This document shows positions 7,551 to 63,027 of a stretch of 64,000 nt of DNA, piece by piece. The stretch spans positions 96,001 through 160,000 of the forward strand of contig CBFHTA010000002.1 in the NCBI GenBank assembly GCA_965658655.1. The letters are read 5' to 3'. Origin of the DNA: Candidatus Babelota bacterium (lineage in GTDB: Bacteria; Babelota; Babeliae; Babelales; CAIQNR01). A model generated the notes under the pieces. That model saw only the letters and a program-made list of their open reading frames with translations. It did not search any database and had not been told where the DNA came from. Position numbers and translations under genes: made by a program. Numbering within the stretch: the stretch's first letter is position 1; the number at the start of each line of letters is the position of its first letter.

Positions 7551-8462
7551 TTGTTAGCAATACTTTTGTTGTACGCGTTGTTTGGTACTACGTTTATTTT
7601 GGGGAAAGAAGCTGTTTCGATTGTCCCCCCAATTTTCTTCATTGGTGTTAGGATGATGCTTGCAAGTATTATTCTTCTAGGGTTCATTAAACTCTGGCAA
7701 CGCGAATCTTTAGCTGTTAAACGTAAAGATGTTCCATGGTTTGTAGGAATTGTGCTCTTTCATATTTACATTGCCTATGTTTTTGAATTTGTAGGAATGC
7801 AGTACCTGACAGGAGGAAAAGCTTGTTTAATGTATAATCTGTCACCTTTTATTACTGCTTTATTTTCGTACATTTTCTTTAGTGAAGTTATGACACTCAG
7901 AAAATGGATAGGTTTAGCTATTGGATTTCTAGCTTTTATCCCAAGCTTAATTTTTCAGACTTCAGCGCAAGAAGCTAGTGCTGGTGGATTTGGATTTATC
8001 TCTTGGGGAGAACTGTTGTTGATCATCTCAGTAGTTTCTGCTTCTGCAGGTTGGATTTTTATGAGAAAGCTTACTCGTGAGCTTGGGTATTCATACTTCT
8101 TTGTGAATACAGTGGGAATGCTTGGAGGGGGTATTTTAGCGTTGGCAACCTCTTATCCGCTTGAAGTGTGGCCTTCTTGTAATAGTTTAATAACCAATTG
8201 GCCATTTTTGTATACACTTTTTGGTCTCATTTTGATTGGAAATATTATTTGCTTTAATTTATACGGTTATCTTTTGGCTAGTTATTCCGCAACCATATTA
8301 TCATTTTTTGGTTTTGTAACACCACTTTTTGCGGCCCTTTTTGGTTGGCTGTGGTTGGGAGAGACTGTTCATTGGACATTTTATGTGACGGTTGCATTGG
8401 TTACATTTGGTCTTTATGAATTTTATCAAGAAGAACTTAAGCAAGGGTATATTCTTAAATAA
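7551..8462 (+). CDS. EamA/DMT-family transporter (copy 4)
   Basis: SPFITALFSYIFFSE, PLFAALFGWLWLGE, FYQEEL; TTG start. Confidence 0.9.
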   Translation: MLAILLLYALFGTTFILGKEAVSIVPPIFFIGVRMMLASIILLGFIKLWQRESLAVKRKDVPWFVGIVLFHIYIAYVFEFVGMQYLTGGKACLMYNLSPFITALFSYIFFSEVMTLRKWIGLAIGFLAFIPSLIFQTSAQEASAGGFGFISWGELLLIISVVSASAGWIFMRKLTRELGYSYFFVNTVGMLGGGILALATSYPLEVWPSCNSLITNWPFLYTLFGLILIGNIICFNLYGYLLASYSATILSFFGFVTPLFAALFGWLWLGETVHWTFYVTVALVTFGLYEFYQEELKQGYILK

Positions 8463-16226: not shown

Positions 16227-16316
16227 GCTTATAAATGAGTAATACTGTTGCGCGAAATATAGTGTTTTCTTTATGTTCATGATAGCTTAATGTCATTATA
16301 TTTAGAGGAAACATTA

Positions 16317-19067
16317 ATGAGAAGTGCACGCGCCTTTCTATTTATTTTTATAGTCTTTTCTTCATGTGATGCGTTTGTTACTCGTAGAGATACGCGTCAT
16401 GTAACGATAGAGTTTAATCAACAACCAAAAGATAACAAACAACGTTTAGATTGGGTAGAGGGAGTTAAGAATGCAATTAATAGTGTTAATGTAACACTTA
16501 GAAGAGATGGATTTCTAATTCCAGAAACTCACCCACTCTCAGTTCAATCATCAGATGGGTGGTGGTCAAAAATTTCAAAATACTGTGCTAACTTATACTA
16601 TGAAGTCTTTTTTCATCAAAAAGCGATTTCTTATCCCGGTGAACTCAATAGAGCCTTTATTGTAAGAAGAAACGATGAGCTAGGAAGTTTTTCTGTTTAT
16701 ATTCCTGACGGTATTCCGGAAAAACTCTTTCTTGAGGTGCTTAGAAAAATGATAGCACAGCATGGTATTGAAGCTTCTATTGAACCAGATCAGCATGTTA
16801 TACTTTCTCATATACAGTATGTAGACACTGATCAAGGTTATCCTAACTTTCAAGGAACATTCTTTGGTTTGGAAGAATTGCAAAAATTCAAAAAAGATTC
16901 TGATGTTAGATCTTTAAAAAAAGCTGATAGAAAACTCCTTGAAAAACGGGAACATAAATTGATGAACTCTGAAGTCGTTCAAAAATCACTTTTAGAAGGC
17001 GATTTTTTTGAAACAGGTAAAGAACGGTTAGAGATCGAAAGAAAAAAGCGTATAGCTCCTTATTTGTTTTGGTGGCAAAGTATTCCTACAACTGGATTAA
17101 GGCTCGAAGAGCCTTTCTGGCCACTTCCTTATCCTTTTTTACCGCATGCTTTTCCATTATGGCAAATGGCTCCAAATATGGGGAAGGGAATAAAAGTTTT
17201 TATTGTTGATACCGGTATGGCAGCCTTTGATGTCATTGGTAAGCCAGAATATAAATGTAATCAAGACTTGCAAATGCAGGCGAATTTTAAAAATGTAAAT
17301 TATAATTTAGTTTCTTCGCAGCATAGTTTGCTTGATAGAACAGAACAACTTGCTCAGCTGCTCGAGGTTTACACTGATAAAGATAAAAGAAATCTTACTT
17401 CTATAAAGAAAAAATTACCTTCTCTAATAACTCATTATGTTTCAAAATATAAAAATGATAAAGAGGAAGCTATAGAACCTATCAGGAACTATCTACTCAA
17501 GAATGGAAGACCGGAATACATTGATACTAAAACAAATAAGCTTTCTAGTGCAGGTAACGCTGCCTTAAATGATATTGTGCATGGAAATGTAGGAATACAT
17601 CCTCATACAAAAGAAGAACCCGATTACACGCTCGTTACGCTCGGTGCTCCTAACAGTCAAGAAAAAGCGATTCTTGAATTTATGCCTTTAGCTGTTATGC
17701 ATAAGAAGCCCTTTAATCTGTTTGCATCTTCTTCCAAGCATCTTGATAGTCGATGGATTACTAAGCACACAACAGGGCATGGAACTCACACGGCTGGTAT
17801 TATTGGAGGATCATTAAAACCAGCTATTGATGAACCTCTTACTTCTGATTCTGTTATAGATCTTCTAGATAAAGATTCTGGGATTTGTGGAATAGCACCA
17901 AAGTGTGATCTTGTAATGATTAAAGCATTTAAAAGCTCTGGTTTTGCAACAAATCGTTCCATTGTTACTCAAGCAGTTAAAAAAGCCCAAGAACAAGGTG
18001 CGCATATTCTTAACTTAAGCCTTAAAATAGATGATCATATTGATACAGCCGAATTTGAATCAAAGAGCTTACAGCAAACGTTAAGTGACATCCCATATGT
18101 TGCTGCAGCTTCAGGAAATGCGCAAAGAAATAATATGGGTGTATATCAATCAGATAGAGAAGGGTACCCTGCGCGATTTCCAAATATAGCATTTGATACT
18201 GGTGCATTTGTTCTTTATAAAAATGAGAATGGTGACTATCACTGTCACATCCCTGCATTTTCTCAACATCAAGTAGGAGTAGGGCCTAAGTTTGTAGCTC
18301 CAGGACAAAATATTTTGAGTTGTGGGCTTATACCGAACCAACAAGAATCTTCTACGTACATGTTCTTACAAGGAACATCTACTGCAGCTCCTTTATTAAG
18401 TGGTTTCTGCGCTTTGTTAATAAGTGAATTTTCGGGTCTTTTTGAATCAAAAGAACGAGAAAGATTCCTTGCAATTTGTTATTCATCAGCTTTAAAAATG
18501 GAGAATTCAGATGACTGGAAAAAGAAAACACTTCTTGGTGTGCTTGATTTTAGAACAGTTCTTTTCAAATTACATGTATTAAGAAAACTTAAAAAAATCC
18601 TTACAGATAAAGAAGTTTTCTACACACCACACTCTAAAACTAAAAAAGCTGTAAAATTAAGTATAGAGAAAGACTTTGATAGAGTATGTAAAGGTATTCA
18701 CATTATACTTTTTGGTATGGTGCATAGCTTTGCAAAAAAGCATAAATTTGACGAAAAAGATAACTTTGAAACAAACTTTATGGGATACTTTAATACTGCT
18801 CGCAAAATAGAACATAGTTTAAATCCCGATATCTTCACTTCTTTTGAAAAAGCTGTCTCTATAGTTGTGCATTCTGTGCTTTATGCTGCAAATAAAGACT
18901 CTCTTTCTCTAGATAATAGAAAACAGGTAGAGCAACATATTGATAATGACACCTTAAAAAATCTTAAAATTCTTTTTTCTCAAGAAAAAGTTGATATGCT
19001 AGATCATACTTCTGGTAGTGCAAGAAGAAGAATAAAAGGTGCATCTCGAGGCACAAAATTAAAGTAG
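16317..19067 (+). CDS. Secreted S8 (subtilisin-like) serine peptidase with large insertions
   Basis: Catalytic triad motifs VFIVDTG, GHGTHTAG, GTSTAAP; oxyanion AASGN; signal peptide; RBS GAGG favours the 16317 start over 16290. Confidence 0.9.
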   Translation: MRSARAFLFIFIVFSSCDAFVTRRDTRHVTIEFNQQPKDNKQRLDWVEGVKNAINSVNVTLRRDGFLIPETHPLSVQSSDGWWSKISKYCANLYYEVFFHQKAISYPGELNRAFIVRRNDELGSFSVYIPDGIPEKLFLEVLRKMIAQHGIEASIEPDQHVILSHIQYVDTDQGYPNFQGTFFGLEELQKFKKDSDVRSLKKADRKLLEKREHKLMNSEVVQKSLLEGDFFETGKERLEIERKKRIAPYLFWWQSIPTTGLRLEEPFWPLPYPFLPHAFPLWQMAPNMGKGIKVFIVDTGMAAFDVIGKPEYKCNQDLQMQANFKNVNYNLVSSQHSLLDRTEQLAQLLEVYTDKDKRNLTSIKKKLPSLITHYVSKYKNDKEEAIEPIRNYLLKNGRPEYIDTKTNKLSSAGNAALNDIVHGNVGIHPHTKEEPDYTLVTLGAPNSQEKAILEFMPLAVMHKKPFNLFASSSKHLDSRWITKHTTGHGTHTAGIIGGSLKPAIDEPLTSDSVIDLLDKDSGICGIAPKCDLVMIKAFKSSGFATNRSIVTQAVKKAQEQGAHILNLSLKIDDHIDTAEFESKSLQQTLSDIPYVAAASGNAQRNNMGVYQSDREGYPARFPNIAFDTGAFVLYKNENGDYHCHIPAFSQHQVGVGPKFVAPGQNILSCGLIPNQQESSTYMFLQGTSTAAPLLSGFCALLISEFSGLFESKERERFLAICYSSALKMENSDDWKKKTLLGVLDFRTVLFKLHVLRKLKKILTDKEVFYTPHSKTKKAVKLSIEKDFDRVCKGIHIILFGMVHSFAKKHKFDEKDNFETNFMGYFNTARKIEHSLNPDIFTSFEKAVSIVVHSVLYAANKDSLSLDNRKQVEQHIDNDTLKNLKILFSQEKVDMLDHTSGSARRRIKGASRGTKLK

Positions 19068-36678: not shown

Positions 36679-39600
36679 TTATACAACCCTTGATTGAGTA
36701 AAGAATGTATTAATAAAAGTCAAAACTCTGTTTTTTAAATCCGATACCGCAAGATGCAAGGGTTGCTCGGGCATTTGAAACCAAGTAAATCGTGTGGAAC
36801 GTGAAGGTGGTTCTGGTGCTGGACGAGAAGCTCTTGGTGCAGGTTGCTGCTGTTGAAAATCTGTTTGCTCTTGACCTGTAGTCCTAACCGCTGTTGAACG
36901 AGAAGGTGGTGCTGGTGGTCCCTGGTAAGAAGTTCCTCTTGAACCTGAATCTTGTTGCGGAAGTTTTTGACCTCTTGAGACCATAGGTCGATTTTCTGAA
37001 CCCGAAGATTGCTGCGCTTCTCTATATTGTTGCCCTTCTGAAACTGGAGCTCTAGGCGGTGCTTTTGGAGGAGATTTTTTGCCAGCTATCGCACTTTGTA
37101 CTTCACTGTCTAAATTACCTTGAGAAATCAATTTAAGACTTCCCGGCTGGACCTGAGCATTTGAAAATTGTTGTCTAATTAAACTCAAACCTTGTCCTCC
37201 TACAGAGTATCCATTAGGATAAAGATAATCTGAATTACCTTTTTTCACCTCGTAGATAGCACCGTTAGAATAATCTACATAGGTACCAACCCCAAACGTA
37301 AGCACAGCATTATTGAACATTTCAATTGCACTCATAGTATTCCCTTTACCGGCGTTGTAACGTGTTTTATCATTTTGATAGTACTCTTCTATTGTTGCCA
37401 ATGGCGGAATACGATACATAACGGTTGGCGTTGGTTTACTAAATCCAACAAGATAACTGCCAATAGAGTTCTTTGGAACTTGTATAGTCATTTTGCTATT
37501 TCTATCAACTTCTTGCACAAGCTGTATGTTTCCTTCTGCATTTGAAATTACATTTACACCATCTTTATACTTTGCAAGATCCTTCTTAGATGCATACGAA
37601 TAACCAAATCCGTAAATTGCTTGGACTTGTTGATTCCCGAGAGCAACGTAAGAACTTTGAACCGCTACTCCAGAACGTGATTTTTGACCCGTTACAGAAT
37701 AGTCAGTAACTAAACCTGGAATACTTATTCCACCAGGCGCTTGATACTGTGCCATTTGCCCAGGACGTGGTAAACCGCCTTGATTTATAAAATAAAGTTT
37801 TGTGTTAGAAGAAGGAGAAACAGGATTTATAGTTGGAACAAACGCAAGCATCGACTCTTCTTTATTTTCAAGAATGCCACAAAGAGTAGATCCAAAAACT
37901 GGAGTACCTTGTGGGATACCTTTTATTCCTTCTCTATTACCCATACCCATACCAACAAATGGTCTTCCATATACTGTTGCTCGAGCAACCATATTATTTT
38001 GAGCCAGAGGGTATTTAAATCCTTGTATGCCACCTTCTATATAACGCTGACTACCAAATTGATACTGACGAGGCTTATCTCCAGCTGCAGATGTCAATGT
38101 AATTGCATCGTATGCCATACCACTTGCAGAAAGCTTATATTCAATCTCATAAAGTGCCCAACCACGTTGAGAAGCAGCCTCTACAGCAGAAACAAATGCA
38201 ACCTCTGCTTTTTGTTGCTCTGTCATACCTTGAGTATCAAACCCTTTTGGCAAATTGAGTTCTTGCATTTTGCCCTCTTGTGAACCTGGTGCAATTATTT
38301 TTTGCACAGGAATAATTTCTTGACTAGCACCCTCTCCTTTTGTTTCATACCCAATATACATTGTTTGTTTTTGAGCATTTTGAAATCGATATATACTGGT
38401 AAATGGTACATACATGTACTGCGTATAACCTTGCCCAGTATTAGCCAAAGCATTAAGATTTTGCCCTTGCCCAGAACTGTTATTTGCCTCACCCCATACA
38501 AAGATAGGCATTTCAACATCAACAACTTCTTGCTTATTTTCCCCTTGAACAATAGGGTACGCAACAACGGTAGGAATCATACGTGGCTGGCCGTTTACAT
38601 AATATTCATCACCACTCATAAGATCTACAAAGTAACCAATATTTGCAATATCTTTGCCATCTTCAGAACCACCACCATATAAGGTTCCTGTCATATCTTG
38701 TACTAATACATAGTATGCTTGAGTAAGACGATGATAATAGTAATAATACTTTTCACCTTTTTCGCGGTTAATAGCCGGAGCAACATTTTTGGCAAGCTTC
38801 ATATAATAACCATCTTGGCCAAAACCTGGAATCAAAGTTTTTTCTCCGGGAGCAAGTGGCAAAGGAACATTTGTTACCGGAATGGTAAGAGATTGTTCTC
38901 CGTTAGGCTCAACCACAACACCATGGGCCGCACGCATAGCTTCAAGCTCAAATCCTTTCATAGCAGATGTTGGCACAAGATTCTCTGCTTTAGGATTAGT
39001 TGGAACAGCGTAATAAACACCCACATTACTGTCGCCGGCTTCTGAGGTAGCGTTGAAATCAAAGAATGTATAAAGTGTTGGCATTCTTCCATTTTCATCT
39101 TTATCAGAGAGAACCGTTTTTGCTTTTAAGAAATACTTACCACCAACTTGTATAAGATTAGAACTTGGAACAGCCGGGTTATTAAGAGTTGGCTCTGTTA
39201 CTGTTCGTGCTTTTTCCATTACTGCTATTGGAATAATAGGAGCTGTATCTATAAGTGATCGTGGATCTTCAAGCGAAGATACCTCATTAATATATTGAGT
39301 ATTAAGCTCGATAATCCTTTGTGCAAGATCTACATTAATTTGTACTTTATTCTGCGTTTGCACAAGTTCCATTGCTCTTCTTGGTACACTTTGCTCTCTA
39401 CCTACACCAGTTTTTTCATACATTTTGCCTAAATAATTTTGCTTACTTTGACCATTTTCTAAATACAACGTACCGGTAACCAAACTCAACATAGCCTTTG
39501 TATATGGAGTTACGGCCTTACCACCAGTAGAAGCACTATTTGGCATATCGGTAACCACTAGATAGTCATGTGCCGAATCATACGATTGACCTTCTGGAGT

Positions 39601-42600
39601 AAGTGCATAAATATAGGTTCCTTTGTTGACAGACTCTAAACTTAAGCGAAGTTTGAGTCCGCCAAAGTAAACGGGGTATAATGTTTTTTGAATTTGTCGC
39701 TGGGCTGATTGCAATGCAGTATTCAACTCTCCTTGTAACCCAGAAGAAAGATTTGCGAATGCCGCATTTAGATTTTGAGTCGTAACTGTTTGGCCAATAT
39801 CTCCTTGATTAGTTAACGCTGCAGCAAGAATTTCTTGAGGACTCAATCTCAGTTGCGTTCCTGTTCGAACTGGAGGAGAAACTTTTCCTTTTGCAGGGTC
39901 AGAACCACCTGGCAATACACTTTGCCCAACAGGTTGTAAACTACACTCGTTTCCAGATAGCGATGCATTAGGAGAGAAACAAGCATAAGGAGCAACATCT
40001 TGCATATCCCCCATTCCTTTAGCACCTGGATAAATATACGGTGTATACACCTGACCAGTACCCACATTAATTAAATACTTACCTGCAACCACTTCAGTGT
40101 AAGGTCTTCCAATACTATGTAACTGATCTATAGATTTTACATTACCATCTTCTGGACCAAGTGCACATACAAAGATATCTGTTTGAGGAAAGCCCGAAGC
40201 ATGATAAAAGAAGTTACCATTTGCAACATCTTGCCTACTTGTTGCAGTAATATACACATTTCCATATTGACGTTGAGTGTAATTAAATGGCCCCATAAAT
40301 CCACTCTGAACCCAATAATTATTTCTATCTTCTGATAGCGACCATTCTGTATAAGCAGCAAGAATACTTGGGTAAAAAGTGCCTAGTTTTTTACCATATG
40401 TTGGACTACTGATACCTTTAAAGAAACGAGCCTGTTTAAGAGGTCCTGTGTCTGCAGTATTGCTCAAGTCTCGTGCAAGGTTAAATCCAGAGAATGCTTC
40501 TGGCAGCACACTCATTAACGAACCATTAACTTTGTCTTTACCATGCGAAATAACCAGTGTAGTTGCATTCTTACACGGTTGCGTCATTGGCCATTGAACG
40601 GTTTGACTCTGCACTGCTTTTGCACTTTGTTCAGCAGCACCACCCGATTGCTCTTCTTGCCCTGTTGGAGAGAAAGTAGAAGATTGCCCACCTCTAGAAC
40701 AGAAAGAGAATCCAGTAAAGAATAAGAAATAAAGTGGAGGAACATTAATCATTAATTGTTCGCTTTTCCACTCTGCTGCTCGTGGCGTTTTATTAATAAT
40801 ACTATTAATAGTATTATACCTCTCTTGAGCACTTGAGAGCATTTTTTCAAGTGGCTCTAGATTTTTTGCTCCCATAAGCGCAGATACTTGTTCTTCATTA
40901 AATCCAGCTTTCATCAAATAGCTACCAGCGCTTTCTGCTCCATATTTATCAATCACTCCAATCGCGTATTCTTTTGTACCAGCAGAGAGCCCTCCTAAAG
41001 AAGCAGAAAGTTTTGAAAATTTAACACCATAATTAAGAACGGCATCTTTTGCACTATTATACTCTTGCAACATTTGAGGATCGGTAATCATTCTATTTAC
41101 AGGATTGTAATAACCTGGCATAAAGGCAGTTCCCATATATACATTTGGAACTACCCTAATTGTTTCTAATGAGCGAGTGGGGCCATTCGGTCCCTTCTTT
41201 TCTACATAAATTTGATCTTGTTGTTCTCCCACCCATGAACCTGTTTGAAAACCATATTTACCTTGACCATTAAGAGAGAAGAAAGAACCTCGATTAAGTG
41301 GATGCATATTAACGGTATACCATAATGGTAAAGGTTCATAATCAGTGTCATAACCACGTCCTGTAATCAAACTAAACAAACCTTGCACACCATGGGTACC
41401 CAAGCTTCCTGTCATCTGATCAAGGCCAAGGGGAAGAATCTCGAACTTACCCGTAGATGCGCCACCAACAGGTACTACGTAATCGGGAACGCCATTCTTT
41501 CCTAATACACCGTCACCACTTTTTGTCACCTTATACACATAGAATCGAGATAGATACTCTTTCTTCTGTGCCTTATTCCAAGAAGTATATAAAGCATTTT
41601 GTTGAGCTGCGCTAGATGCTTGGCTAAGCACGTCTCCCATATCTTTAATACTGTTTTCTTGTTGCTCAAATGCGTCTCCATCTAACAGCTCTGTTAGAGG
41701 AACCCTGGTCAAAGTATAATTAGTATAGGTAGTAAATGGACCATCAACAGCTGCATCTGTACTATATTTTGCCATTGCTACAATCTGACTCATTGCTCTT
41801 TCTCCAATAGAACCTGCTCTCATAAGGAGCCTTTCTATTTGTTGCAACGCATAGGTGGCCATAGAATTATCTGGCACTCCATTACCGTCAAGATACGGAG
41901 TAAGTAATTTTGTATCACTTGCTACTTTCCCTTGTGCAGTAGTTGCCGGTCGAGTTCCTTGGTCATCTCCCTTTTGATAGGTAAGACCAGTTGTTAAACT
42001 AGAAATATAAACAATATCAGGATTTGGAACCATTTTGAGCGTATAACCTTTTACCGTTTCACTACCAGCAACAGCTTTACCTTTGCCTGTCTTTTGTTGC
42101 TTCTCTAAGTCACCCTTTACCACCCGTGGTACAAGAAGCGGAACAATACTTTTATTTGCCGACAAACAAACAACATACTCTTTAAGTGGCACATATGAAT
42201 TTGAATTGTTTCGTAATAAACCATGAAGTGAAGGTGTCACTGTAGTAGCAGTTTTTGCTTGTGTGTTATCTGAAACAATTTCATAAACATACAGGTTATA
42301 TGCATTAAGGTTTGCGTCAGGAGAAAAACCATATTCTGGTGTATCTACTTGCTGTTCTCCAAGTGCGTTGGCAACTGCACTTTGTGCTTGTCTAAGAGCG
42401 CTCTTTTCTTTTTCGCCATACGTAACCTTATTACCGTCAAACGAAATACTCGATTTATAACTTTGATCAATTTCAGCAAGACTTTTTAAAGCTTTTTTTA
42501 AATCTGAACTAAGCGGACGAAGAGAATTATTAAGAATAATATTTAAGAACCCCGTACCTTCCATTTGACGTAATTGCAAAGTACCAAAACCTTTTACGTC

Positions 42601-44472
42601 TGTAGGAGATCTAAATGCAGCAATGGTTTTATAAAACAATGGCGGTGGTAGATTTCCTCCCACAGTTCCTGGAAGCGTTGATTGTGTAGAAGCAGAACCA
42701 GTAGCTGCGTATTGACGCACCATAGGAGATAACAACATTGCTTTAATTATAGGATCGTTAAATGAATTTTTTGCTCCATGTGACATTAACGAAGAAGAAT
42801 CCATACGCAAATAATCAAGCGCATCAGAAGTATGCGTAAAAGTATTAGCGCTTGTTTTAGTTACAAACCCACTCGCAAATGGTTCAATAACACCAATCAT
42901 AGATTGGGTAGGCTGAAGATAGTTTGCAGCTTCGCCCGTACCTACAAATACATACCCATTATTTAAACAAACCATCTGACCGTTAAACTGAGATCCTCCA
43001 ATATAAGAAGTTCCCCAGAAACTTTGTTGTGGTGCACCGGTTACATAGAAGTTGGCAGTTCGTAAAAACTGAGAGTTAAAGTAACCAGAAGACTGCTTAG
43101 TACCATTTGGAACTTCACAATAAAGGTAAGCTGAATTTGCAGGATTCTGTTGATCAATTAATTGTGGGGGAATCTGCAACCACAAATTACCAAATGGCTG
43201 AGCGTCTCCAATAGTTTCGAGCAACGCCATTCTGTTCTCTTTTGCCACCGTCATTTGATACAAGGCACTCGGCACAGTAAATGCAAGAGCCTGACCAAGC
43301 AACATAACAAAACCAGAAACCAACATTCGCACAACGCTCAGGGCTCCTTTTCCTGCCCACTCAAGGTTTCTACCAATTCTTTTATCTATAGAATCAAGTT
43401 TTCGAATAGCTTTTTCGTTTTTCGCTTGTTCTTTCAACTTATCATTAAGTTCATCTTCTAATCCTGTAGTATCTTCACCATCGTTTCCTGCTCTGGCGAT
43501 GCGATCTCTTACATCTTGAACTTCATCTGCCAATCGTGGTCGCTCCACTTTTATCAACCGTTCTTGTTCTTCTATCGTTCTTTGAGACCTCAAAGATTTG
43601 TCAGACCAATCATGATAGTCATCCACCTTACCTCGAACATACCTTGTTGTACCACTCCAAGCATCATCAACTTTACCTTTAGCTCCTCTCCACGCCCTTT
43701 TTAAAAAGCCCGCATCATCGGCATCATTTTTTTCACCCCGAGTCATTGTGTCTCGTAAATCTTTCATATCTTTTCGGTTTTCATTCAAGCGATCTTCTGC
43801 ATCATCAAGATTTGCCTGAGCTTCCTTCACTTCTCTAGAGGTACTATTAGGGTTTTCTTTTACCTTTTCTAAATTTTGTTGAGCCTCATTAGCTTTTTGA
43901 TTCAAATCTGTGTTTTCTTTCTTTAATCTCTTATACTGGTCTGCCTTACTTGTGCTTCCCTCAGACCCTTTGATAGCACCATCAGTATCGTTATGCATAT
44001 CTAATCGAGCTGAATTATCGCCTGAAAGGGGATCTCCACTCTCGGGATCAACTCCGTCAGGACCCTGTTGAACATTTATGTTATCCATCGCTTGGTTGAT
44101 TTTACCAACATCATAGTTATCGTTATCAGCCTTCATAACAGCTCTGGCATTAGCAACGTCTTGATCTGTAATACTTGCTTTTGCTTCGTTAATAGCCTTT
44201 ACTTGGCTAGAGTCAAGGTCTTCTAGCTTTAAGGTTTTCCCCGTTATTCTCTCGTATTTTGCTACAGCTTCTATTTGGTCTTCAGAAAGATTTCCAAGGT
44301 CGTCACCTTGAAGGTCTCCATCTTTAACCGACAAACCGTCTCCAAGGTCTGCATCATCATCCGCCATAGCATCTGCCGCAGCGTCCATAGAAAAAACAGG
44401 AGAAAAAGAGATAAATGGGAGTGCCGTAATTAACAATGTTAAGAGTGTGAGATTTTTAAATTTAATTTTCAT
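36679..44472 (-). CDS. 2597-aa secreted protein: acidic N-terminus, coiled coil, hydrophobic segment, cryptic repeats, Pro-rich tail
   Basis: Uninterrupted 7.8-kb ORF; signal peptide ending VFS-MD; upstream TTGATT-18-TAAGCT promoter-like element; own terminator. Confidence 0.9.
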   Translation of the reverse strand: MKIKFKNLTLLTLLITALPFISFSPVFSMDAAADAMADDDADLGDGLSVKDGDLQGDDLGNLSEDQIEAVAKYERITGKTLKLEDLDSSQVKAINEAKASITDQDVANARAVMKADNDNYDVGKINQAMDNINVQQGPDGVDPESGDPLSGDNSARLDMHNDTDGAIKGSEGSTSKADQYKRLKKENTDLNQKANEAQQNLEKVKENPNSTSREVKEAQANLDDAEDRLNENRKDMKDLRDTMTRGEKNDADDAGFLKRAWRGAKGKVDDAWSGTTRYVRGKVDDYHDWSDKSLRSQRTIEEQERLIKVERPRLADEVQDVRDRIARAGNDGEDTTGLEDELNDKLKEQAKNEKAIRKLDSIDKRIGRNLEWAGKGALSVVRMLVSGFVMLLGQALAFTVPSALYQMTVAKENRMALLETIGDAQPFGNLWLQIPPQLIDQQNPANSAYLYCEVPNGTKQSSGYFNSQFLRTANFYVTGAPQQSFWGTSYIGGSQFNGQMVCLNNGYVFVGTGEAANYLQPTQSMIGVIEPFASGFVTKTSANTFTHTSDALDYLRMDSSSLMSHGAKNSFNDPIIKAMLLSPMVRQYAATGSASTQSTLPGTVGGNLPPPLFYKTIAAFRSPTDVKGFGTLQLRQMEGTGFLNIILNNSLRPLSSDLKKALKSLAEIDQSYKSSISFDGNKVTYGEKEKSALRQAQSAVANALGEQQVDTPEYGFSPDANLNAYNLYVYEIVSDNTQAKTATTVTPSLHGLLRNNSNSYVPLKEYVVCLSANKSIVPLLVPRVVKGDLEKQQKTGKGKAVAGSETVKGYTLKMVPNPDIVYISSLTTGLTYQKGDDQGTRPATTAQGKVASDTKLLTPYLDGNGVPDNSMATYALQQIERLLMRAGSIGERAMSQIVAMAKYSTDAAVDGPFTTYTNYTLTRVPLTELLDGDAFEQQENSIKDMGDVLSQASSAAQQNALYTSWNKAQKKEYLSRFYVYKVTKSGDGVLGKNGVPDYVVPVGGASTGKFEILPLGLDQMTGSLGTHGVQGLFSLITGRGYDTDYEPLPLWYTVNMHPLNRGSFFSLNGQGKYGFQTGSWVGEQQDQIYVEKKGPNGPTRSLETIRVVPNVYMGTAFMPGYYNPVNRMITDPQMLQEYNSAKDAVLNYGVKFSKLSASLGGLSAGTKEYAIGVIDKYGAESAGSYLMKAGFNEEQVSALMGAKNLEPLEKMLSSAQERYNTINSIINKTPRAAEWKSEQLMINVPPLYFLFFTGFSFCSRGGQSSTFSPTGQEEQSGGAAEQSAKAVQSQTVQWPMTQPCKNATTLVISHGKDKVNGSLMSVLPEAFSGFNLARDLSNTADTGPLKQARFFKGISSPTYGKKLGTFYPSILAAYTEWSLSEDRNNYWVQSGFMGPFNYTQRQYGNVYITATSRQDVANGNFFYHASGFPQTDIFVCALGPEDGNVKSIDQLHSIGRPYTEVVAGKYLINVGTGQVYTPYIYPGAKGMGDMQDVAPYACFSPNASLSGNECSLQPVGQSVLPGGSDPAKGKVSPPVRTGTQLRLSPQEILAAALTNQGDIGQTVTTQNLNAAFANLSSGLQGELNTALQSAQRQIQKTLYPVYFGGLKLRLSLESVNKGTYIYALTPEGQSYDSAHDYLVVTDMPNSASTGGKAVTPYTKAMLSLVTGTLYLENGQSKQNYLGKMYEKTGVGREQSVPRRAMELVQTQNKVQINVDLAQRIIELNTQYINEVSSLEDPRSLIDTAPIIPIAVMEKARTVTEPTLNNPAVPSSNLIQVGGKYFLKAKTVLSDKDENGRMPTLYTFFDFNATSEAGDSNVGVYYAVPTNPKAENLVPTSAMKGFELEAMRAAHGVVVEPNGEQSLTIPVTNVPLPLAPGEKTLIPGFGQDGYYMKLAKNVAPAINREKGEKYYYYYHRLTQAYYVLVQDMTGTLYGGGSEDGKDIANIGYFVDLMSGDEYYVNGQPRMIPTVVAYPIVQGENKQEVVDVEMPIFVWGEANNSSGQGQNLNALANTGQGYTQYMYVPFTSIYRFQNAQKQTMYIGYETKGEGASQEIIPVQKIIAPGSQEGKMQELNLPKGFDTQGMTEQQKAEVAFVSAVEAASQRGWALYEIEYKLSASGMAYDAITLTSAAGDKPRQYQFGSQRYIEGGIQGFKYPLAQNNMVARATVYGRPFVGMGMGNREGIKGIPQGTPVFGSTLCGILENKEESMLAFVPTINPVSPSSNTKLYFINQGGLPRPGQMAQYQAPGGISIPGLVTDYSVTGQKSRSGVAVQSSYVALGNQQVQAIYGFGYSYASKKDLAKYKDGVNVISNAEGNIQLVQEVDRNSKMTIQVPKNSIGSYLVGFSKPTPTVMYRIPPLATIEEYYQNDKTRYNAGKGNTMSAIEMFNNAVLTFGVGTYVDYSNGAIYEVKKGNSDYLYPNGYSVGGQGLSLIRQQFSNAQVQPGSLKLISQGNLDSEVQSAIAGKKSPPKAPPRAPVSEGQQYREAQQSSGSENRPMVSRGQKLPQQDSGSRGTSYQGPPAPPSRSTAVRTTGQEQTDFQQQQPAPRASRPAPEPPSRSTRFTWFQMPEQPLHLAVSDLKNRVLTFINTFFTQSRVV

Positions 44473-44551: not shown

Positions 44552-46039
44552 CTATGCTTCTTCGGTGTAAGAGTCGGAAGCAAGGAACTTTTTCAAACGA
44601 CTGTACAATTGTGGTCGATCCATAATGTCGTGATATCTACCAATAACTTTGTCTCCTCGAAGTACAATAAAATGGGGTACATCAGGTACTTTGTACTTTT
44701 TGGTCAAATCAAAAGCATCAGAAGCATCAACCTTAAAGAATCTAACTTTCCCCGCAAACTTTGCAGCTCCCCAATCAATTACCGGCATCATATGCATACA
44801 AGTAGGGCACGCGGTAGTATAGAAATCTAAGAAAACAAGCTCCTCAGAAGCCCCTTCCATTTTACGTTTAAGGTCTGTTTCGCTATTTATGTGATCAACT
44901 TTAATTTTCTTGGCTGCTTTTTCGAAGAAATATGGCTCCAAACTCTCTTGCATTCGTTGATTATAACCCAATGAACTAAGCCACCATACCACATCTAAAC
45001 CAGCCTTAATGCCATCTCCTGCGGCAACACCAGCTTGTCGATAACGAGGATCGCACACATCACCAGCAGCAACCACACCTTGATAGTTTGTTTGTTGAGT
45101 TCTACCATCAATCAATAAATAACCTTGCTTGTTCACATTAAGCGTATCTTTAAAGAGCTTTGTATTAGGATCGTGCCCAATTCCTAAAAAGACCCCTGTA
45201 ATCTTAAGATTGTCTTCTTCGCCGGTTTTAGGATTTTTAACATCAATATTGGTCACATGATATTCATCACCATTGATTTTGGTAATAACTGTATTATGAC
45301 GAATTTTAACATTATGGCAGCCAAGTGCCTTTTCTATCATACTTGGCGAAGCCTTGAGCTGCTCACCCCGAACCAAAATAGTTACGTTTTTAGCGTAAGG
45401 AGAAAGTTCGATTGCTTCTTCCATGGCAGAATCACCACCACCAACAACCACCACATCGTGATCCCTATGGTAAGGCGCATCACAAATTGCACAGGTTGTT
45501 ACTCCACGTCCCCAATAGGTATGCTCACCCTCAACATTTAAGCCGCGCGCGGTTGCACCGGTCCCAATCATAATAGCCATAGCGCGCAGCGTATTGCCCT
45601 CTTCGGTCTTCACCACATAAGGCCATTGAGAAAAATCAACAGAGCTCACAGTGTCATCAATCATGATAGCACCAAATTCTTCTGCTTGCTCTTGTTGTTG
45701 AGCAACTACTTCACTTCCCTTAATACGAGGAATTCCAGGCCAATTTTCTATGTAAGAAGTTCCTGTAAGCTGCCCCCCAGGCTTATTTCCGCGCAAACAA
45801 ATGGTTCGAATGCGTGTTCGAGATCCATACAACGCAGCGCTCAACGAGGCTGGGCCAGAACCAATCACTAAAAATGGAACTAAATTTTCAGTCTCTTTTA
45901 ATTTTTTAAGATCATATTGAAGGGGAGATTTTGATACATCAGAGGTATTACTACTTTTATAGTACCACCCGGCTACCCCACCAAAACATACAAGTGTGAT
46001 GAAACCCCAGAAAACATGTTTTGATGTTTTTTTTAGCAT
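44552..46039 (-). CDS. trxB: Thioredoxin reductase-thioredoxin fusion with N-terminal membrane anchor
   Basis: IGSGPA, GGQL, CAICD, GGGDSAMEEA, AAGDV; C-terminal Trx domain DFYTTACPTC; N-terminal TM VFWGFITLVCFGGVAGWYY. Confidence 0.9.
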   Translation of the reverse strand: MLKKTSKHVFWGFITLVCFGGVAGWYYKSSNTSDVSKSPLQYDLKKLKETENLVPFLVIGSGPASLSAALYGSRTRIRTICLRGNKPGGQLTGTSYIENWPGIPRIKGSEVVAQQQEQAEEFGAIMIDDTVSSVDFSQWPYVVKTEEGNTLRAMAIMIGTGATARGLNVEGEHTYWGRGVTTCAICDAPYHRDHDVVVVGGGDSAMEEAIELSPYAKNVTILVRGEQLKASPSMIEKALGCHNVKIRHNTVITKINGDEYHVTNIDVKNPKTGEEDNLKITGVFLGIGHDPNTKLFKDTLNVNKQGYLLIDGRTQQTNYQGVVAAGDVCDPRYRQAGVAAGDGIKAGLDVVWWLSSLGYNQRMQESLEPYFFEKAAKKIKVDHINSETDLKRKMEGASEELVFLDFYTTACPTCMHMMPVIDWGAAKFAGKVRFFKVDASDAFDLTKKYKVPDVPHFIVLRGDKVIGRYHDIMDRPQLYSRLKKFLASDSYTEEA

Positions 46040-55884: not shown

Positions 55885-57381
55885 CTATTTAAACCAACCT
55901 CTAGCTCTTCCTCTTTCTGCTACTTTACTCACGGCTTCAGGATTATCACGTCTCCATTGTTCAAGCTGTTCCGAATCCCTACGCGCTTCTCGTTGTTCAT
56001 CCGTAAGCGACCGACTCCTTCTTGATGGATCTGTTGTATTATCTGTTCCCAAATTATATCTTTCCCTCAACGCATTATTTCTCAATTTTTGGTAAGTTTG
56101 CATATGTTGTTGCTCTCGTTGCATTTTTTGTTCTCGAGTTAACCTTTCAGCTTTTCTTCTATAACCCACTTCTCTATCTAATGATTTCACTTTAGTATCA
56201 AGGTAATTATCACCAGTATGCTGAGTATAATCCTTAGTAGCAAAGTCCTCGGCGCCAAATCCATCGTTCCTTATCATCGCTAGGTTAGCGCTCTTTTTTA
56301 GATCTGCTTCTCTATTTCTTTGATATTCAAGATGCTCTAAAAGAGCAGTTTTTTGTTCAGGAGTTTCAGCATCACGTATAAGTGTGTCTACCTGTTTTTT
56401 ATATTCTATTTTTGCATTACCAAGTTGTTTTCGTATATCCACTCTATTGTCGCCTTCAAACTTGTTATACAAGTTTGAAATTTTATTGAATATTTTTCTT
56501 TCCTCTTTAAATTTATCGTCATAGGAATGAACGTCTTTCTCTTGCTGTTCAACATAACGAGCTCGATCAGCATTATCTTCGAACGTTGCTGACTTCTTCA
56601 ACATTCGCTCTGCTTGCCTTCTTGTAAGATGATCCCCACCCTGTTCACCCTTTGCAATACTCTTGAGCTGAGCTTCTCTTGCACCTTGAGACTTTAATCT
56701 ATCAAGTTTAAATTCTTCTGCAGTATGTGGTGTTACCCCATCTGCATTATTTTCTATGTTTTCTGTTCCACCAGTACCTTCACCTCGCATTCCCTTTAAT
56801 ATTTCTCTGGCACGTGCATGTTCTCCAGATCTTGAACCATCTGCTAATATTTCCCTTGCTTCATCACGCAAGTTATCATTTGATTCTTTAAAATCTTCTT
56901 CAAATGTGTTCCTCACATTGTCCATATCTTTTTCATATCCATCGTACTCAATACTAGAATCGTTTTTTGCATTGTGCCATGCGTTTCGAGCTTTTTCTCT
57001 TTTTTCAAGATGAAAATCTAACCCACGCAAAGTTGAAACTTCAGCAACGTTTTCAGCTATTGAAGCACTTTCTCCTGTGTTGGCAACAGCACTTGAAGCA
57101 TCAACCGAACCTTGCATCTCAACAGGTGTTTTTGAACTGCTCCCTCCGCTAAACAATGAACGGATTCTATCAATAAAACCTCTTCTTTGAGGCTTTATTG
57201 AGGTATTGTTATCAACTACATCTCGCTCGTTGTCACCATTTTGACCATCTCGACCATCTAAATTATCTTGCCGATTCCCATTGTCACCAGTATTGTGTTC
57301 TTCAATCACGCCATCCATAGAAGACAGAGAAAGAGGAATTGCAACTGCTAAAAGCAGTAATGCCAATATACTTTTCTTCAT
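55885..57381 (-). CDS. Secreted family member 2, charged helical C-terminal region
   Basis: Signal peptide ending LSS-MDG; shared N-domain up to RGLDF; ends RGRARGWFK. Confidence 0.85.
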   Translation of the reverse strand: MKKSILALLLLAVAIPLSLSSMDGVIEEHNTGDNGNRQDNLDGRDGQNGDNERDVVDNNTSIKPQRRGFIDRIRSLFSGGSSSKTPVEMQGSVDASSAVANTGESASIAENVAEVSTLRGLDFHLEKREKARNAWHNAKNDSSIEYDGYEKDMDNVRNTFEEDFKESNDNLRDEAREILADGSRSGEHARAREILKGMRGEGTGGTENIENNADGVTPHTAEEFKLDRLKSQGAREAQLKSIAKGEQGGDHLTRRQAERMLKKSATFEDNADRARYVEQQEKDVHSYDDKFKEERKIFNKISNLYNKFEGDNRVDIRKQLGNAKIEYKKQVDTLIRDAETPEQKTALLEHLEYQRNREADLKKSANLAMIRNDGFGAEDFATKDYTQHTGDNYLDTKVKSLDREVGYRRKAERLTREQKMQREQQHMQTYQKLRNNALRERYNLGTDNTTDPSRRSRSLTDEQREARRDSEQLEQWRRDNPEAVSKVAERGRARGWFK

Positions 57382-57422: not shown

Positions 57423-58562
57423 TTAAAATTTCCACCATTTTCTTTTCTTGTACGTTTCCGCTAAATCGTTCATATTATCATCAAATTCCTGTGCACTGTT
57501 TTGCATTCTCTCTGAAGTTTCTGCCCCCTGTTGTACTCGCTCTGTTCTTTTAGCCATACCTGCATCAAGAGCTGTACCTTGCCCTTGTTGCATCCGGGCA
57601 GCACGTCTTGCTTTTGCTGTATCAAGCGCTGCTCTCATTTCAGGAGTATAACGACCTCTTATTGGCTGACTTTCCAAATTATAACGGTTAATTCTGCCTT
57701 CATTATTCCCTATGTTTTGACCCCTTTGGTTAAGGTCTGAACCTGAAAATCCTTCACTGTTTCTGGATATTCTCGGGTTAAATTGATCTGCTTCATCTTG
57801 GATATCTTTAGCACTTTTCGCTTTTTCGGTTGGTTCCTCTGTTCTTCCAAATAAGAACCAACTTCTTTTTTTTCTCTCTCTAATTTGACTAGTACGCTTT
57901 CTTAACTCATTATTAACTCTATCTATATTTTTTAAATAAAGATCCATTTCAGATGATCTAGATGTACCACCTTCATATCCTTTATTAAAGTCATCTTCCA
58001 GAGCTTTTCTTTTATCGTTCAAAGCGTTCATTTCATCAAACGCTGAATCACTTCTTCCACCCCACCAAGATCTCTTATACTTACCTTTAAAACTAACTGC
58101 ACCATTTTCGTCGATATTTGCAGTAAGATTTAATCCACGATTTGCAGTTCTAGCTATATTTGCTTCTGACTGTTCTGCTGAGGGTGCATTGGATTGATTA
58201 ACGGTTGAATCCATATCTTGGCCAACAATCTCTGCAGGAACATTTTGTGAACCTCTTTCAGGCACATTACTACTTCGGCTAAACCATCCACTTTTTTTTT
58301 CTGTTCGCCTTGTGCTTGTTTCAGTAAAACGACTCATACCATCTGCTAGATTATTTGCCTTTTCCATCAAGCCGTCTGAACTTGGCTGGCTCTCTTGAAA
58401 TCGTTCGATTCGATTTCTAAAGTCGTCTACAGGCGGTGCTTCATTATCACCACTCATACCTAAACCCATACTATCCGGCTCAGTAGGCGGTTCAAAACCA
58501 TCCATTGCGCATAGTGAATTTGCTGAAATAAACAATAGTAAAAATAAGCTTATTTTTTTCAT
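57423..58562 (-). CDS. Secreted family member 1 with C-terminal tomosyn-like R-SNARE motif
   Basis: Signal peptide ending LCA-MDG; C-terminus KRTERV...SERMQNSAQEFDDNMNDLAETYKKRKWWKF. Confidence 0.8.
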   Translation of the reverse strand: MKKISLFLLLFISANSLCAMDGFEPPTEPDSMGLGMSGDNEAPPVDDFRNRIERFQESQPSSDGLMEKANNLADGMSRFTETSTRRTEKKSGWFSRSSNVPERGSQNVPAEIVGQDMDSTVNQSNAPSAEQSEANIARTANRGLNLTANIDENGAVSFKGKYKRSWWGGRSDSAFDEMNALNDKRKALEDDFNKGYEGGTSRSSEMDLYLKNIDRVNNELRKRTSQIRERKKRSWFLFGRTEEPTEKAKSAKDIQDEADQFNPRISRNSEGFSGSDLNQRGQNIGNNEGRINRYNLESQPIRGRYTPEMRAALDTAKARRAARMQQGQGTALDAGMAKRTERVQQGAETSERMQNSAQEFDDNMNDLAETYKKRKWWKF

Positions 58563-58696
58563 TTTCTTTCTCCATTTTTTCCAGTCCCTATTGCTTAAGC
58601 TTGAGACTTAAATCTATATGTTAAAAGAATAACAATTTGGGAAGACCAAAGTAAAGAGAAAGCCCTGAAAAGGGCATCCTAAGCTTATTATGAGAA

Positions 58697-59211: not shown

Positions 59212-60597
59212 TTATCGTAAAATTTCTTCCTCAAGTCTACGAATAGTCGACCGTAAATTGCTATCTTTTTCAGCGTTCTCTTGCACTCTATCAAAAGCAT
59301 GGATCACAGTTGAATGGTCTTTACGACCTAAGAATCCACCAATTTCTCGTAACGATCTTTGGGTCATCTTCTTCATTAAATACATAGTCAATTGGCGTGC
59401 AAATGAAAGATCTTTCGCCCTGCTGTTAGAACGTAAATCAGATAAACGATAGGAGTAATGTTTGCAAACGCATGAAGCAATTCGATCAAAATTTATTTTT
59501 TCTTTTTTCTTTGGATCTGGTTCTCTATGCAATACTTTGCGTGCTAATTCAACAGAAAGTGGCTGCTTAGTTAATGAAGAGAAAGCTAACACACGCACCA
59601 ACGAACCTTCTAATTCACGAACATTAGAAACCGCTTTTTGTGCAATAAAATCTGCCACGTCATCTGCCAATTCTTCGTTATGCGTTTGTGCTTTGCGTTT
59701 TAAAATTGCAATTTTTGTTTCTAAGTGTGGCTTGTGAATATCAGCAACCAATCCCCATTCTAAACGAGTACACAAACGTTCCTCGAGACCTTTAATCTCT
59801 CGTGGAAACAGATCACTAGAAAACACAATTTGTTTACGAGACTCATACAACGAATTAAAAATATGGAAAAACGCTTCCTGCGTTTGTTCTTTATTAGAAA
59901 TAAACTGAATATCATCTAACAATAGAATATCGATCATGCGATACCGCTGTTGAAACAAATGAATTTTATTAAATCGAATTGCAGAAATAAATTCATTTAT
60001 GAATCGATCAGTTGTTTGGTAAAACACCACCGCTTTACTATCTCGCTTTTGAATAGCGTTACCAATAGCATGCAATAAATGTGTTTTGCCCAGCCCTGAA
60101 CCACCATAAAGAAAAAAGGGATTGTATTGATCACCAGGATTCTCCGCAATTGAACGAGCTGCGGCGTAGGCAAGCGAATTACTAGGACCAACTACAAAAG
60201 TTTCGAACGTGTATTGCGGATTAAGATAACCATAATTTTTACGTGTTTTGTGAACAAGCGCATTCTTTACCTTACCAGGAATAGAACCTTTCTTTGGTAG
60301 CGCATAGGCAAGCAAAGAGCTTTTCTTCTGCTCTTGATTCTGTTGTTCTGTAGGGCTCAAAAATGTCACCTTTAACGAATCTACATGTAACAGACGCGCT
60401 AAATGTGTTTGAAACAACGGTTGATACTTACTCGCTATCCATTCTTTTACAAAAGTATTGGGTGCTTGAATAATAATACTTTTTTCTTCAGGACTCCAGT
60501 GTGCAATTTTAACAGCCTTTAACCATGTTTCAACAATACGACTGCCCGCTTCTTGGCGAACAATAGAAAGAAAATTTTGCCAAACATCGGTTAACAC
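59212..60597 (-). CDS. dnaA: Chromosomal replication initiator DnaA
   Basis: YTFETFVVGPSN, YNPFFLYGGSGLGKTHLLHAIGN, LLDDIQF, NVRELEG, GRKDHSTVIHA. Confidence 0.98.
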   Translation of the reverse strand: MLTDVWQNFLSIVRQEAGSRIVETWLKAVKIAHWSPEEKSIIIQAPNTFVKEWIASKYQPLFQTHLARLLHVDSLKVTFLSPTEQQNQEQKKSSLLAYALPKKGSIPGKVKNALVHKTRKNYGYLNPQYTFETFVVGPSNSLAYAAARSIAENPGDQYNPFFLYGGSGLGKTHLLHAIGNAIQKRDSKAVVFYQTTDRFINEFISAIRFNKIHLFQQRYRMIDILLLDDIQFISNKEQTQEAFFHIFNSLYESRKQIVFSSDLFPREIKGLEERLCTRLEWGLVADIHKPHLETKIAILKRKAQTHNEELADDVADFIAQKAVSNVRELEGSLVRVLAFSSLTKQPLSVELARKVLHREPDPKKKEKINFDRIASCVCKHYSYRLSDLRSNSRAKDLSFARQLTMYLMKKMTQRSLREIGGFLGRKDHSTVIHAFDRVQENAEKDSNLRSTIRRLEEEILR

Positions 60598-62007: not shown

Positions 62008-63027
62008 TTAACTGAACAGTTCAGGTTTATACGTTAAGCGGCGAGATCGCTCCCACGCAACAATGAAGTGGTGAAGATCGTAACGTTGATTAACTTCAGA
62101 ATGCGTATCAAAAGCTGGATCGTAACACAGTACTTTCTTATCTTTTGCATCAAAACCAACAACTACAAGAAGGTGCCCTTGTTTATACTCTTTTTTTCCG
62201 CCAGGAATACTTCCACGAATACTTACAGCAACAGGAACATTCTGTTTAAGTAATGCATGCAGATCATGAAAAGAGTTTAAACGTGTAGTATAAAACAAAG
62301 CATGACCATGTCCTTTTTCAAACGCATGCGCCATATTAAGCCCCCAGTTGCCAAAAATATCGAGCCCTTCATCGTATACGTAGTTAGAGAAGAGCAATGG
62401 TTCCATTTTTTTACCGGTTAATGTTTCTACCATCATGCTCACCGATGTTGGAGAGCACAATGCATTTGCACGAGGATGGTCTATCATAATTTGCGATTTC
62501 TTTGGGACATTAGAAACACGACACGAATCAAGGTTTTTACCGCGTCCATTGTAAGGTTCAATTTTAAAACGAGTAAAATCTGCTGCAGCTACCATAACAC
62601 CTTTTAGAGATCCTAATGACACTTTCTTTCCATCACGAGCAACCTTTACTTGAAACGCAGATCCTTTTTTATTGTTCTCCATTTCTAATCGTGCATATTT
62701 AAAGACTGAATGTTTACCGCGACTAAAATGTGATTTCTGTATATTAGAACCCCACTCAACCATTTTGTGCCATTTATCCCACGTACCAGTTTTTTGATCC
62801 TTCACGCGAACAGAGAAGGTAAACGCTCCCCGTTTGGGACGATGTGCATTCCACGAGAAAACAAGCTGAGTAAATGGCATGGCATCATAATGCGATATTT
62901 GTAATTCTTCTTTTCGTTTATTGGCATGCATTTGTTGATCTGAATAAACATGCTTATACGTGCGTGACCACGGTTCTTTTGCCTGTAAACTTACAATACT
63001 CAATAATATTAGAATTGCCTTCTTCAT
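62008..63027 (-). CDS. Secreted C39-like cysteine peptidase
   Basis: SQ...CSPTSVSM, GHLLVVVGFD, YDPA; signal peptide ending LQA. Confidence 0.85.
   Translation of the reverse strand: MKKAILILLSIVSLQAKEPWSRTYKHVYSDQQMHANKRKEELQISHYDAMPFTQLVFSWNAHRPKRGAFTFSVRVKDQKTGTWDKWHKMVEWGSNIQKSHFSRGKHSVFKYARLEMENNKKGSAFQVKVARDGKKVSLGSLKGVMVAAADFTRFKIEPYNGRGKNLDSCRVSNVPKKSQIMIDHPRANALCSPTSVSMMVETLTGKKMEPLLFSNYVYDEGLDIFGNWGLNMAHAFEKGHGHALFYTTRLNSFHDLHALLKQNVPVAVSIRGSIPGGKKEYKQGHLLVVVGFDAKDKKVLCYDPAFDTHSEVNQRYDLHHFIVAWERSRRLTYKPELFS

Follow-up and report, generated by a model that had tools for sequence, protein, structure and literature searches.

An exported-type protein of a Babeliales bacterium with an anchorless R-SNARE-like motif at its C-terminus

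We analyzed a stretch of 64,000 nucleotides from a Candidatus Babelota bacterium (GenBank assembly GCA_965658655.1, contig CBFHTA010000002.1, positions 96,001 to 160,000), hereafter the window, and within it a single gene that encodes a protein of exported type, P0001. The C-terminus of P0001 carries an R-SNARE-like motif without a membrane anchor, and our analysis confirmed that this motif is a real feature of the protein. The features of the gene, in window positions, are as follows.

57423..58562, minus strand: the whole gene, encoding the 379-residue exported-type protein P0001; taken from the list of open reading frames (ORFs) and the translation, stop codon included
58506..58562, minus strand: Sec-type signal peptide, residues 1-19, read from the sequence, with a putative cleavage site
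58284..58430, minus strand: N-terminal brevin-like SNARE motif, residues 45-93, ending KKSGW(F); from profile A6 against PDB
57750..58181, minus strand: central module, residues 128-271, made up of helices and a beta-hairpin; from an AlphaFold2 (AF2) model and the motif positions
57426..57572, minus strand: C-terminal R-SNARE-like half motif, residues 331-379, with layers −2 to +8 and the tail KKRKWWKF
57546..57548, minus strand: codon of Arg339, the proposed zero-layer Arg
58570..58573, minus strand: GGAG ribosome-binding site, 7 nt before the ATG, likewise read from the sequence
58662..58675, minus strand: terminator-like hairpin after the upstream gene, from a consensus scan only

The leader of P0001 consists of two Lys, a nine-residue hydrophobic core and then S-L-C-A, and it contains no canonical lipobox. 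Near-identical leaders were found in three members of its family (P0003, P0005 and P0008). The hairpin after the upstream gene suggests that the P0001 gene starts its own transcription unit, which is possibly shared with the downstream ORF at 55885-57381. At the other end of the protein, the stop codon directly follows KKRKWWKF. No hydrophobic segment was found after this tail, either in frame or just downstream, and inspection of the C-terminus revealed no Cys, CAAX box or transmembrane segment.

The AF2 model of P0001 was mostly helical, with a mean predicted local distance difference test score (pLDDT) of 61.7 and with helices at residues 46-57, 62-84 and 331-377. Its best-defined block belonged to the central module (residues 141-230, pLDDT 74-93). 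A Foldseek search of the model against PDB gave nothing at E ≤ 0.001, and the syntaxin Habc-like three-helix matches that appeared (E 0.6-1.6) were unusable. Four basic-aromatic motifs are distributed along the chain, at residues 89-94, 163-167 (KRSWW), 230-236 (RKKRSWF) and 372-377. No WD40/Lgl match to Pfam was found in P0001 at E ≤ 1, an NCBIfam search of P0001 and its neighbour genes gave no match, and there was no paralogue among the 8111 ORFs of its own genome.

A previous sequence-only reading of this DNA had proposed that the last 41 residues of P0001 form a tomosyn-like R-SNARE mimic that lacks an anchor. These residues agreed exactly with the translation of 57423-58562 (minus strand), the codon at 57546-57548 that it had placed in the zero layer encodes Arg339, and the residues that it had assigned to layers −2 to +8 were all correct. 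The anchorless end was borne out by the stop after the KKRKWWKF tail and the lack of a hydrophobic stretch. The same was true of its caveat about a weak N-terminal half, for a conserved Gly-rich L-G-x-G turn precedes the helix, which begins around layer −2. The N-terminal signal peptide, a second brevin-like motif and the family context had gone unnoticed. The layer residues of P0001 and of its family are given below.

Layer −2: L332 in P0001; L in the family
Layer −1: M336 in P0001; M/I/L/F in the family
Layer 0: R339 in P0001; R in the family
Layer +1: V343 in P0001; V/L/F/I in the family
Layer +2: G346 in P0001; G/M/L/V/I in the family
Layer +3: S350 in P0001; S/G in the family
Layer +4: M353 in P0001; M/L/I in the family
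Layer +5: A357 in P0001; A/G in the family
Layer +6: F360 in P0001; F/L in the family
Layer +7: M364 in P0001; M/I/A/V/S in the family
Layer +8: L367 in P0001; L/Y in the family

R-SNAREs have small residues at layers +3 and +5 and a bulky F or L at +6. The family residues at these layers (S/G, A/G and F/L, respectively) fit this pattern. We also calculated the Kyte-Doolittle hydropathy, which averaged 2.35 at the layer positions versus −2.17 elsewhere; the six other registers reached values of ≤0.35.

We searched 1.84 billion representative sequences exhaustively and found seven homologues of P0001 at E ≤ 0.001, all of which are metagenome sequences. Word-indexed searches were mostly unproductive for P0001, which is of low complexity: P0001 alone found nothing, and the whole-family profile recovered only P0004. 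Arg339 was the sole invariant column in the 8-sequence and 9-sequence alignments (A1, A3, A4). It aligns to position 29 of the Pfam Synaptobrevin profile (PF00957; gathering score 26.4 bits), and in VAMP4 its counterpart is the Arg of E-R-G. The anchorless end is also kept, with six of the eight members ending within 1-2 residues of a W-W/W-x-F tail. The relatives are only 25-41% identical. That they nevertheless share the half motif, its zero-layer Arg and a Trp tail without an anchor argues for selection on exactly these three features.

Synaptobrevin was the only Pfam family that recurred among the members, matching six of the eight at E ≤ 1; 16 other families were each matched by one member. 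The best E value in the family was 8.5e-5 (P0006), P0003 matched at 7.3e-4, and the best member reached 22.7 bits, which is below the gathering score. We then built a profile of seven C-terminal motifs (A2). A family profile search of 261 Babeliales genomes revealed one further member, P0009, which matched A2 at E 3.8e-6 over 50 positions (10,662 ORFs). P0009 on its own matched Synaptobrevin (E 3.9e-4); its Arg falls on profile position 29, as Arg339 does, and VAMP4 was the only PDB match of P0009. This bridging homologue (L005 1489-2403, minus strand) has a lipobox-like leader, L-A-V-G-C, and a W-containing tail. NCBI lists an identical 289-residue protein for Candidatus Chromulinivorax destructor, annotated as hypothetical, and UniRef labels it a lipoprotein (P0016/P0017). 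The family thus extends to a cultured parasite of protists.

The comparison of A2 with PDB placed VAMP4 first (E 0.008), and six of the 15 matches at E ≤ 10 were R-SNAREs. When P0009 was added to the profile (A3), VAMP4 was matched at E 1.8e-5 and R-SNAREs made up 12 of the 17 matches, all in a single register that pairs the invariant Arg with the Arg of the R-SNAREs. They were VAMP4, a designed rv-SNARE, Nyv1, seven VAMP2/3 matches, tomosyn and synaptobrevin. There were no Q-SNAREs among the A3 matches in PDB, though syntaxin and SNAP-25 chains share those entries. Designed coiled coils were also present among the PDB matches (tail phmmer, A2 and A3). As an internal control, a profile of the whole protein matched R-SNAREs through its two ends only, and its middle gave only a weak match to FadA. 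The R-SNARE profile match that would be expected from the sequence-only reading fell below threshold for P0001 alone and was obtained for the family profiles, which match R-SNAREs specifically.

A specific relationship to tomosyn was not supported. The tomosyn SNARE motif (1urq_A) was only the tenth A3 match (E 0.19, 14.9 bits), behind VAMP4, Nyv1 and VAMP2, and P0001 has no WD40/Lgl domain. 1urq_A was absent from the match lists of A2 and of A6, the N-terminal motif profile described below; its chain ends one residue past the matched stretch and is thus without the tomosyn tail, to which the sequence-only reading had proposed a gap-free alignment. The VAMP2 alignment, which covers profile positions 8-47 and 36 residues of VAMP2, extends to the Trp pair, so the P0001 tail corresponds to the synaptobrevin juxtamembrane linker and is about four residues longer. 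P0001 ends at the point where a transmembrane helix would start.

In P0002, P0003, P0006 and P0008, the Synaptobrevin match to Pfam sits just after the signal peptide and not at the C-terminus. We built the profile A6 from this N-motif in five sequences, two of them near-identical, with P0009 left out. The PDB matches of A6 included VAMP8/endobrevin (E 3.9e-5 to 7.3e-5) and VAMP2 (E 0.003-0.01). R-SNAREs accounted for 15 of the first 16 matches and 15 of 24 in all; the single Q-SNARE listed was syntaxin 1 (E 2.9), and none was found at E ≤ 1. The G-W-F that follows the N-motif aligns with F-W-W of VAMP8. Layer 0 of this motif is occupied by Arg in P0002 and by Ser58 in P0001; P0003, P0006 and P0008 have Gln there. 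The N-motif and the C-motif also resembled each other (hhalign of A6 with the C-motif, probability 75.8%, E 2.3e-5). Helix 200-237, which ends RKKRSWF, resembled the +3-to-tail part of the C-motif (profile A7; hhalign 59%, E 9.1e-5) and showed no resemblance to the N-motif; it may be a third partial repeat.

Here, we also explored R-SNARE-like genes across the 261 Babeliales genomes. PF00957 was matched at E < 1e-3 in eight of them and above the gathering score in two. Weak matches were frequent, occurring at E ≤ 0.05 in 48 of the 261 genomes and in 6 of 14 control genomes. The Q-SNARE family PF05739 reached E ≤ 1e-3 in one Babeliales genome, where stops lie inside the match, and was above its cut-off in none. 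In the genome of P0001 itself, a Q-SNARE partner was sought; PF12352 gave no match, and PF05739 matched only the signal peptide of the P0001 ORF (E 0.43). The P0001 locus was the best six-frame PF00957 match of this genome (E 0.016). In an ESM Atlas search with the tail (residues 305-379), the top clusters carry PF00957 (score 0.84), which is a lead only. All eight Babeliales R-SNARE-like ORFs that were inspected start with a hydrophobic leader, and their C-terminal ends vary, including Cys clusters, a CAAX-like C-G-L-L and a transmembrane helix. The presence of R- but not Q-SNARE-like ORFs across the order suggests that the lineage as a whole targets host endolysosomal fusion. The small ORFs with both a signal peptide and a match of Synaptobrevin type (20-45 bits) are the following.

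L086 1465-1866, minus strand: 45.1 bits versus PF00957, VAMP8-like at E 4.8e-6
L088 1204-1662, plus strand
L087 1369-1788, minus strand
L090 1402-1962, minus strand
L091, L093 and L095: ORFs of the same type

Cultured Dependentiae are obligate parasites of protists. The source genome belongs to the Babeliales (Candidatus Dependentiae) and comprises 0.93 Mb in four contigs, with 95% completeness. Its guanine-cytosine (GC) content is about 37%, and the P0001 gene shows no local GC anomaly. We found two secretin genes side by side (G000 C1:179820-184721; ORF lengths 882 and 917 residues), and no VirB4 or FHIPEP match was detected in this 95%-complete genome. Therefore, Sec together with a secretin channel, or with vesicles, is a plausible export route. 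The study of Chromulinavorax destructans gives signal peptides on 44% of its coding sequences, describes a cell that buds vesicles while in the food vacuole and later sits in the host cytoplasm, and contains the authors' inference that host lipids are used (PMC6561590).

The closest known counterparts of P0001 are the brevin R-SNAREs (VAMP2, VAMP4, VAMP8; PF00957), which were the best PDB profile matches of both the C- and the N-motifs. Like P0001, they have a zero-layer Arg, layers 0 to +8, small residues at +3 and +5, Phe at +6 and a basic Trp-containing stretch after +8. Unlike them, P0001 has no transmembrane helix, its C-motif is without layers −7 to −3, and it has a Sec signal peptide and two, possibly three, motif copies per chain. 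Judged as an R-SNARE, P0001 thus falls short of the Pfam threshold, of the full 16 layers and of a C-terminal anchor, whereas the zero-layer Arg, the in-register R-SNARE profile similarity and the R- rather than Q-type specificity are all present. Tomosyn (STXBP5) shares with P0001 an R-SNARE-type helix at the extreme C-terminus and the lack of a membrane anchor. However, P0001 has no WD40 beta-propellers, and its sequence is nearer to VAMP4, VAMP8 and VAMP2. Without an anchor, tomosyn cannot drive fusion, and it has been proposed to be a non-fusogenic competitor for syntaxin/SNAP-25 (PMC10495110).

IncA of Chlamydia and IcmG/DotF and YlfA/YlfB of Legionella insert into membranes, and their coiled coils are SNARE mimics only; these proteins have been proposed to disturb host SNARE-mediated fusion through heptad SNARE-like motifs. 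In contrast, the P0001 family has profile homology to R-SNAREs and no membrane-spanning segment.

Neveu et al. reported complex formation in vitro between R-SNAREs of Legionellales and neuronal Q-SNAREs (10.1101/810531). The Legionellales set includes R-, Qa-, Qc- and Qbc-types, among them LseA (10.1101/810531; Khalifeh et al., PMC9546365). The Legionellales proteins resemble P0001 in being bacterial, eukaryote-derived and mostly without a transmembrane domain, and in belonging to intracellular parasites of protists; tandem R-SNARE motifs occur in some of them too (PMC9546365). They differ in having full motifs, found at E < 1e-4 with SNARE hidden Markov models, and CAAX boxes or hairpin transmembrane domains, and they are presumed substrates of the Dot/Icm type IV system. 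P0001, on its side, comes from another phylum and has a Sec leader, a half motif and a Trp-rich tail, with no VirB4 or CAAX found. Our full-text literature searches returned no paper on Babeliales together with synaptobrevin, and among the titles listed for Dependentiae/TM6 and SNARE none dealt with SNAREs in this phylum. One supplement of PMC9546365 contained no mention of Dependentiae, TM6, Babela, Chromulinavorax or Vermiphilus.

The C-terminal motif of P0001 is quite likely truly derived from an R-SNARE. It is possible, at slightly under an even chance, that P0001 engages host Q-SNAREs as a non-fusogenic competitor. The best explanation overall, in which we place about as much belief as doubt, is an exported effector-type Babeliales protein that is built from brevin-type R-SNARE pieces and blocks or diverts host fusion. 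The motif would have been acquired from an endosomal brevin-type R-SNARE of the host. P0001 would cross the inner membrane by Sec, could then pass a secretin-type channel of the outer membrane or travel on outer-membrane vesicles to the side facing the host, and may attach peripherally to membranes through its four basic-aromatic motifs. The SNARE-like helices would zipper onto host Q-SNARE acceptor complexes. Because P0001 has no C-terminal anchor, it could not pull two membranes together and would act as a non-fusogenic competitor or cap. Such a cap might prevent or redirect fusion events near the parasite, such as that of the food vacuole with the lysosome; its action would be like that of the tomosyn tail, without P0001 being a tomosyn.

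Several results weigh against this explanation. The Pfam Synaptobrevin profile matched the whole of P0001 at only E 0.11 (12.8 bits), and although it was the top family for the C-terminal 75 residues (E 0.0077, 16.5 bits), both scores are below the gathering score. The six-frame value of E 0.016 falls in a range where control genomes match too (6 of 14 at E ≤ 0.05), and phmmer returned no SNARE from PDB, whether the query was P0001 or its tail. The C-motif holds only 11 of the 16 layers, with Gly at +2 in P0001. The P0001 copy of the N-motif, with Ser58 at layer 0 and with Pro60, is degenerate, and fuller copies occur in the relatives. The alignment of the N- and C-motifs is one heptad off the register in which both align to R-SNAREs, which is typical heptad ambiguity. 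Within the order, BLASTP of the P0001 tail against a bona fide Babeliales R-SNARE gave nothing, hhalign of the C-motif with three clearer Babeliales R-SNARE motifs reached a probability of only 21.9%, and the family is rare, being present in 2 of the 261 genomes and not found in a same-genus genome. Furthermore, a signal peptide shows periplasmic export only, and outer-membrane passage and access to the cytosolic SNAREs of the host are assumed.

Some of these results would suit a chance or convergent likeness, in which P0001 is an ordinary charged coiled-coil protein of the envelope or periplasm and its Arg serves another purpose. The sub-threshold scores of the single sequence, the weak PF00957 matches that are common noise, the low hhalign probability and a signal peptide that proves periplasmic export only are all consistent with it, and so are the designed coiled coils among the PDB matches. 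However, two separate regions of the family match R-SNAREs independently, near E 1e-5 and in the correct register, and no Q-SNARE appears at E ≤ 1 despite the shared PDB entries, the single one listed being the syntaxin 1 match at E 2.9. The middle of the protein gives no such matches, and the sole invariant residue falls exactly on layer 0. We regard a chance likeness as unlikely. Alternatively, the gene could be in decay, as what is left of a formerly complete R-SNARE effector that has lost its N-terminal layers, its anchor and its SNARE activity. This would account for the degenerate N-motif of P0001 (Ser at layer 0, Pro60), for Gly at +2 and for the patchy distribution of the family, and in other Babeliales lineages the motifs are fuller and end in Cys-rich, CAAX-like or transmembrane segments. 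Such decay is very unlikely, as the reading frame is intact over 379 codons and the half motif, its Arg and the Trp tail have been conserved at such low identity.

Derivation from an R-SNARE is also compatible with a different use of the motif. P0001 could be a membrane-capturing tether on the bacterial surface or on outer-membrane vesicles that binds the Q-SNAREs of host vesicles, a reading that we hold to be unlikely, together with its outcome, in which host membrane or lipid would be recruited to the parasite or vesicles docked on the vacuole. The lipobox-like leader of the homologue P0016/P0017 would fix an N-terminus to the bacterial membrane, and the four basic-aromatic motifs of P0001 suit binding at the membrane interface; the report on the cultured relative, which sheds vesicles in the food vacuole and for which the use of host lipids was inferred, also agrees with it (PMC6561590). 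However, P0001 itself has no canonical lipobox, and an N-terminal anchor would be at the wrong end for N-to-C zippering to join two bilayers. A further variant, which appears decidedly improbable, is a multi-helix SNARE surrogate with two, perhaps three, R-SNARE-derived helices, each followed by a basic Trp/Phe motif for the membrane interface that would stand in for a transmembrane anchor. With similarly small probability, such a protein could give two helices to one host bundle in the fashion of SNAP-25 and lock a Qa-SNARE of the host in a dead-end complex at the membrane surface. If true, this would be fusion poisoning of a kind not described for any pathogen, and Dependentiae, which rely on general secretion and not on injection systems, would be a second lineage of bacteria, independent of the first, that possesses a diverse set of SNAREs.

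In the literature found, eukaryote-derived SNAREs of bacteria were described for Legionellales only. On the explanation of P0001 as an exported blocker of host fusion, the protein would extend this idea to Candidatus Dependentiae, which are poorly known parasites of protists. What is new in P0001 is the phylum, the Sec-type export, the duplicated motifs, the restriction of the C-motif to layers −2 to +8 and the Trp-rich basic tail. Because a homologue is recorded for the cultured Candidatus Chromulinivorax destructor, the idea is testable in a real host-parasite system.

We also looked at other genes with similar ends. The ORF directly downstream of P0001 (P0015, 498 residues; window 55885-57381, minus strand) codes for a charged, helical protein whose signal peptide is followed by M-D-G and whose last residues are R-G-W-F-K. 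BLASTP showed no significant similarity between P0015 and P0001, so that P0015 was rejected as a paralogue, and no homologue of P0015 was found in five genomes of the same family. A basic-Trp C-terminal tail occurred in 4 of 800 gene-like ORFs of the genome versus about 2 expected; it is not widespread, and a common sorting tag was rejected on this count. Another protein of the same genome, P0018 (G000 C1:446728-447540, minus strand; L117 1229-2041), has a signal peptide, a coiled coil and two hydrophobic segments. Its C-terminus reads A-x-E-L-E-A-A-S-N-R-F and then KKKRWLKF, much like the +3-to-tail part of P0001, and its Pfam search gave a weak Syntaxin_2 match (E 0.05). A P0018 homologue from the same genus (L120 1426-2277, minus strand) retains both features.

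The remainder of the window contains several genes of other kinds. Four consecutive EamA-family transporter genes (4076-8462, plus strand) fit metabolite scavenging. Candidate secreted hydrolases are a 925-residue S8 subtilase (16290-19067, plus strand) and a C39-like peptidase (62008-63027, minus strand). A 2597-residue ORF (36679-44472, minus strand) had no Pfam match at E ≤ 1e-5 and a noise-level NCBIfam match, and a fused thioredoxin reductase-thioredoxin is encoded at 44552-46039 (minus strand). For window 13758-15955 and 59212-60597, dnaN and a recF-like gene were noted to lie about 45 kb from dnaA, and the cumulative GC skew turns near 18-20 kb of the window, nearer to dnaN than to dnaA.

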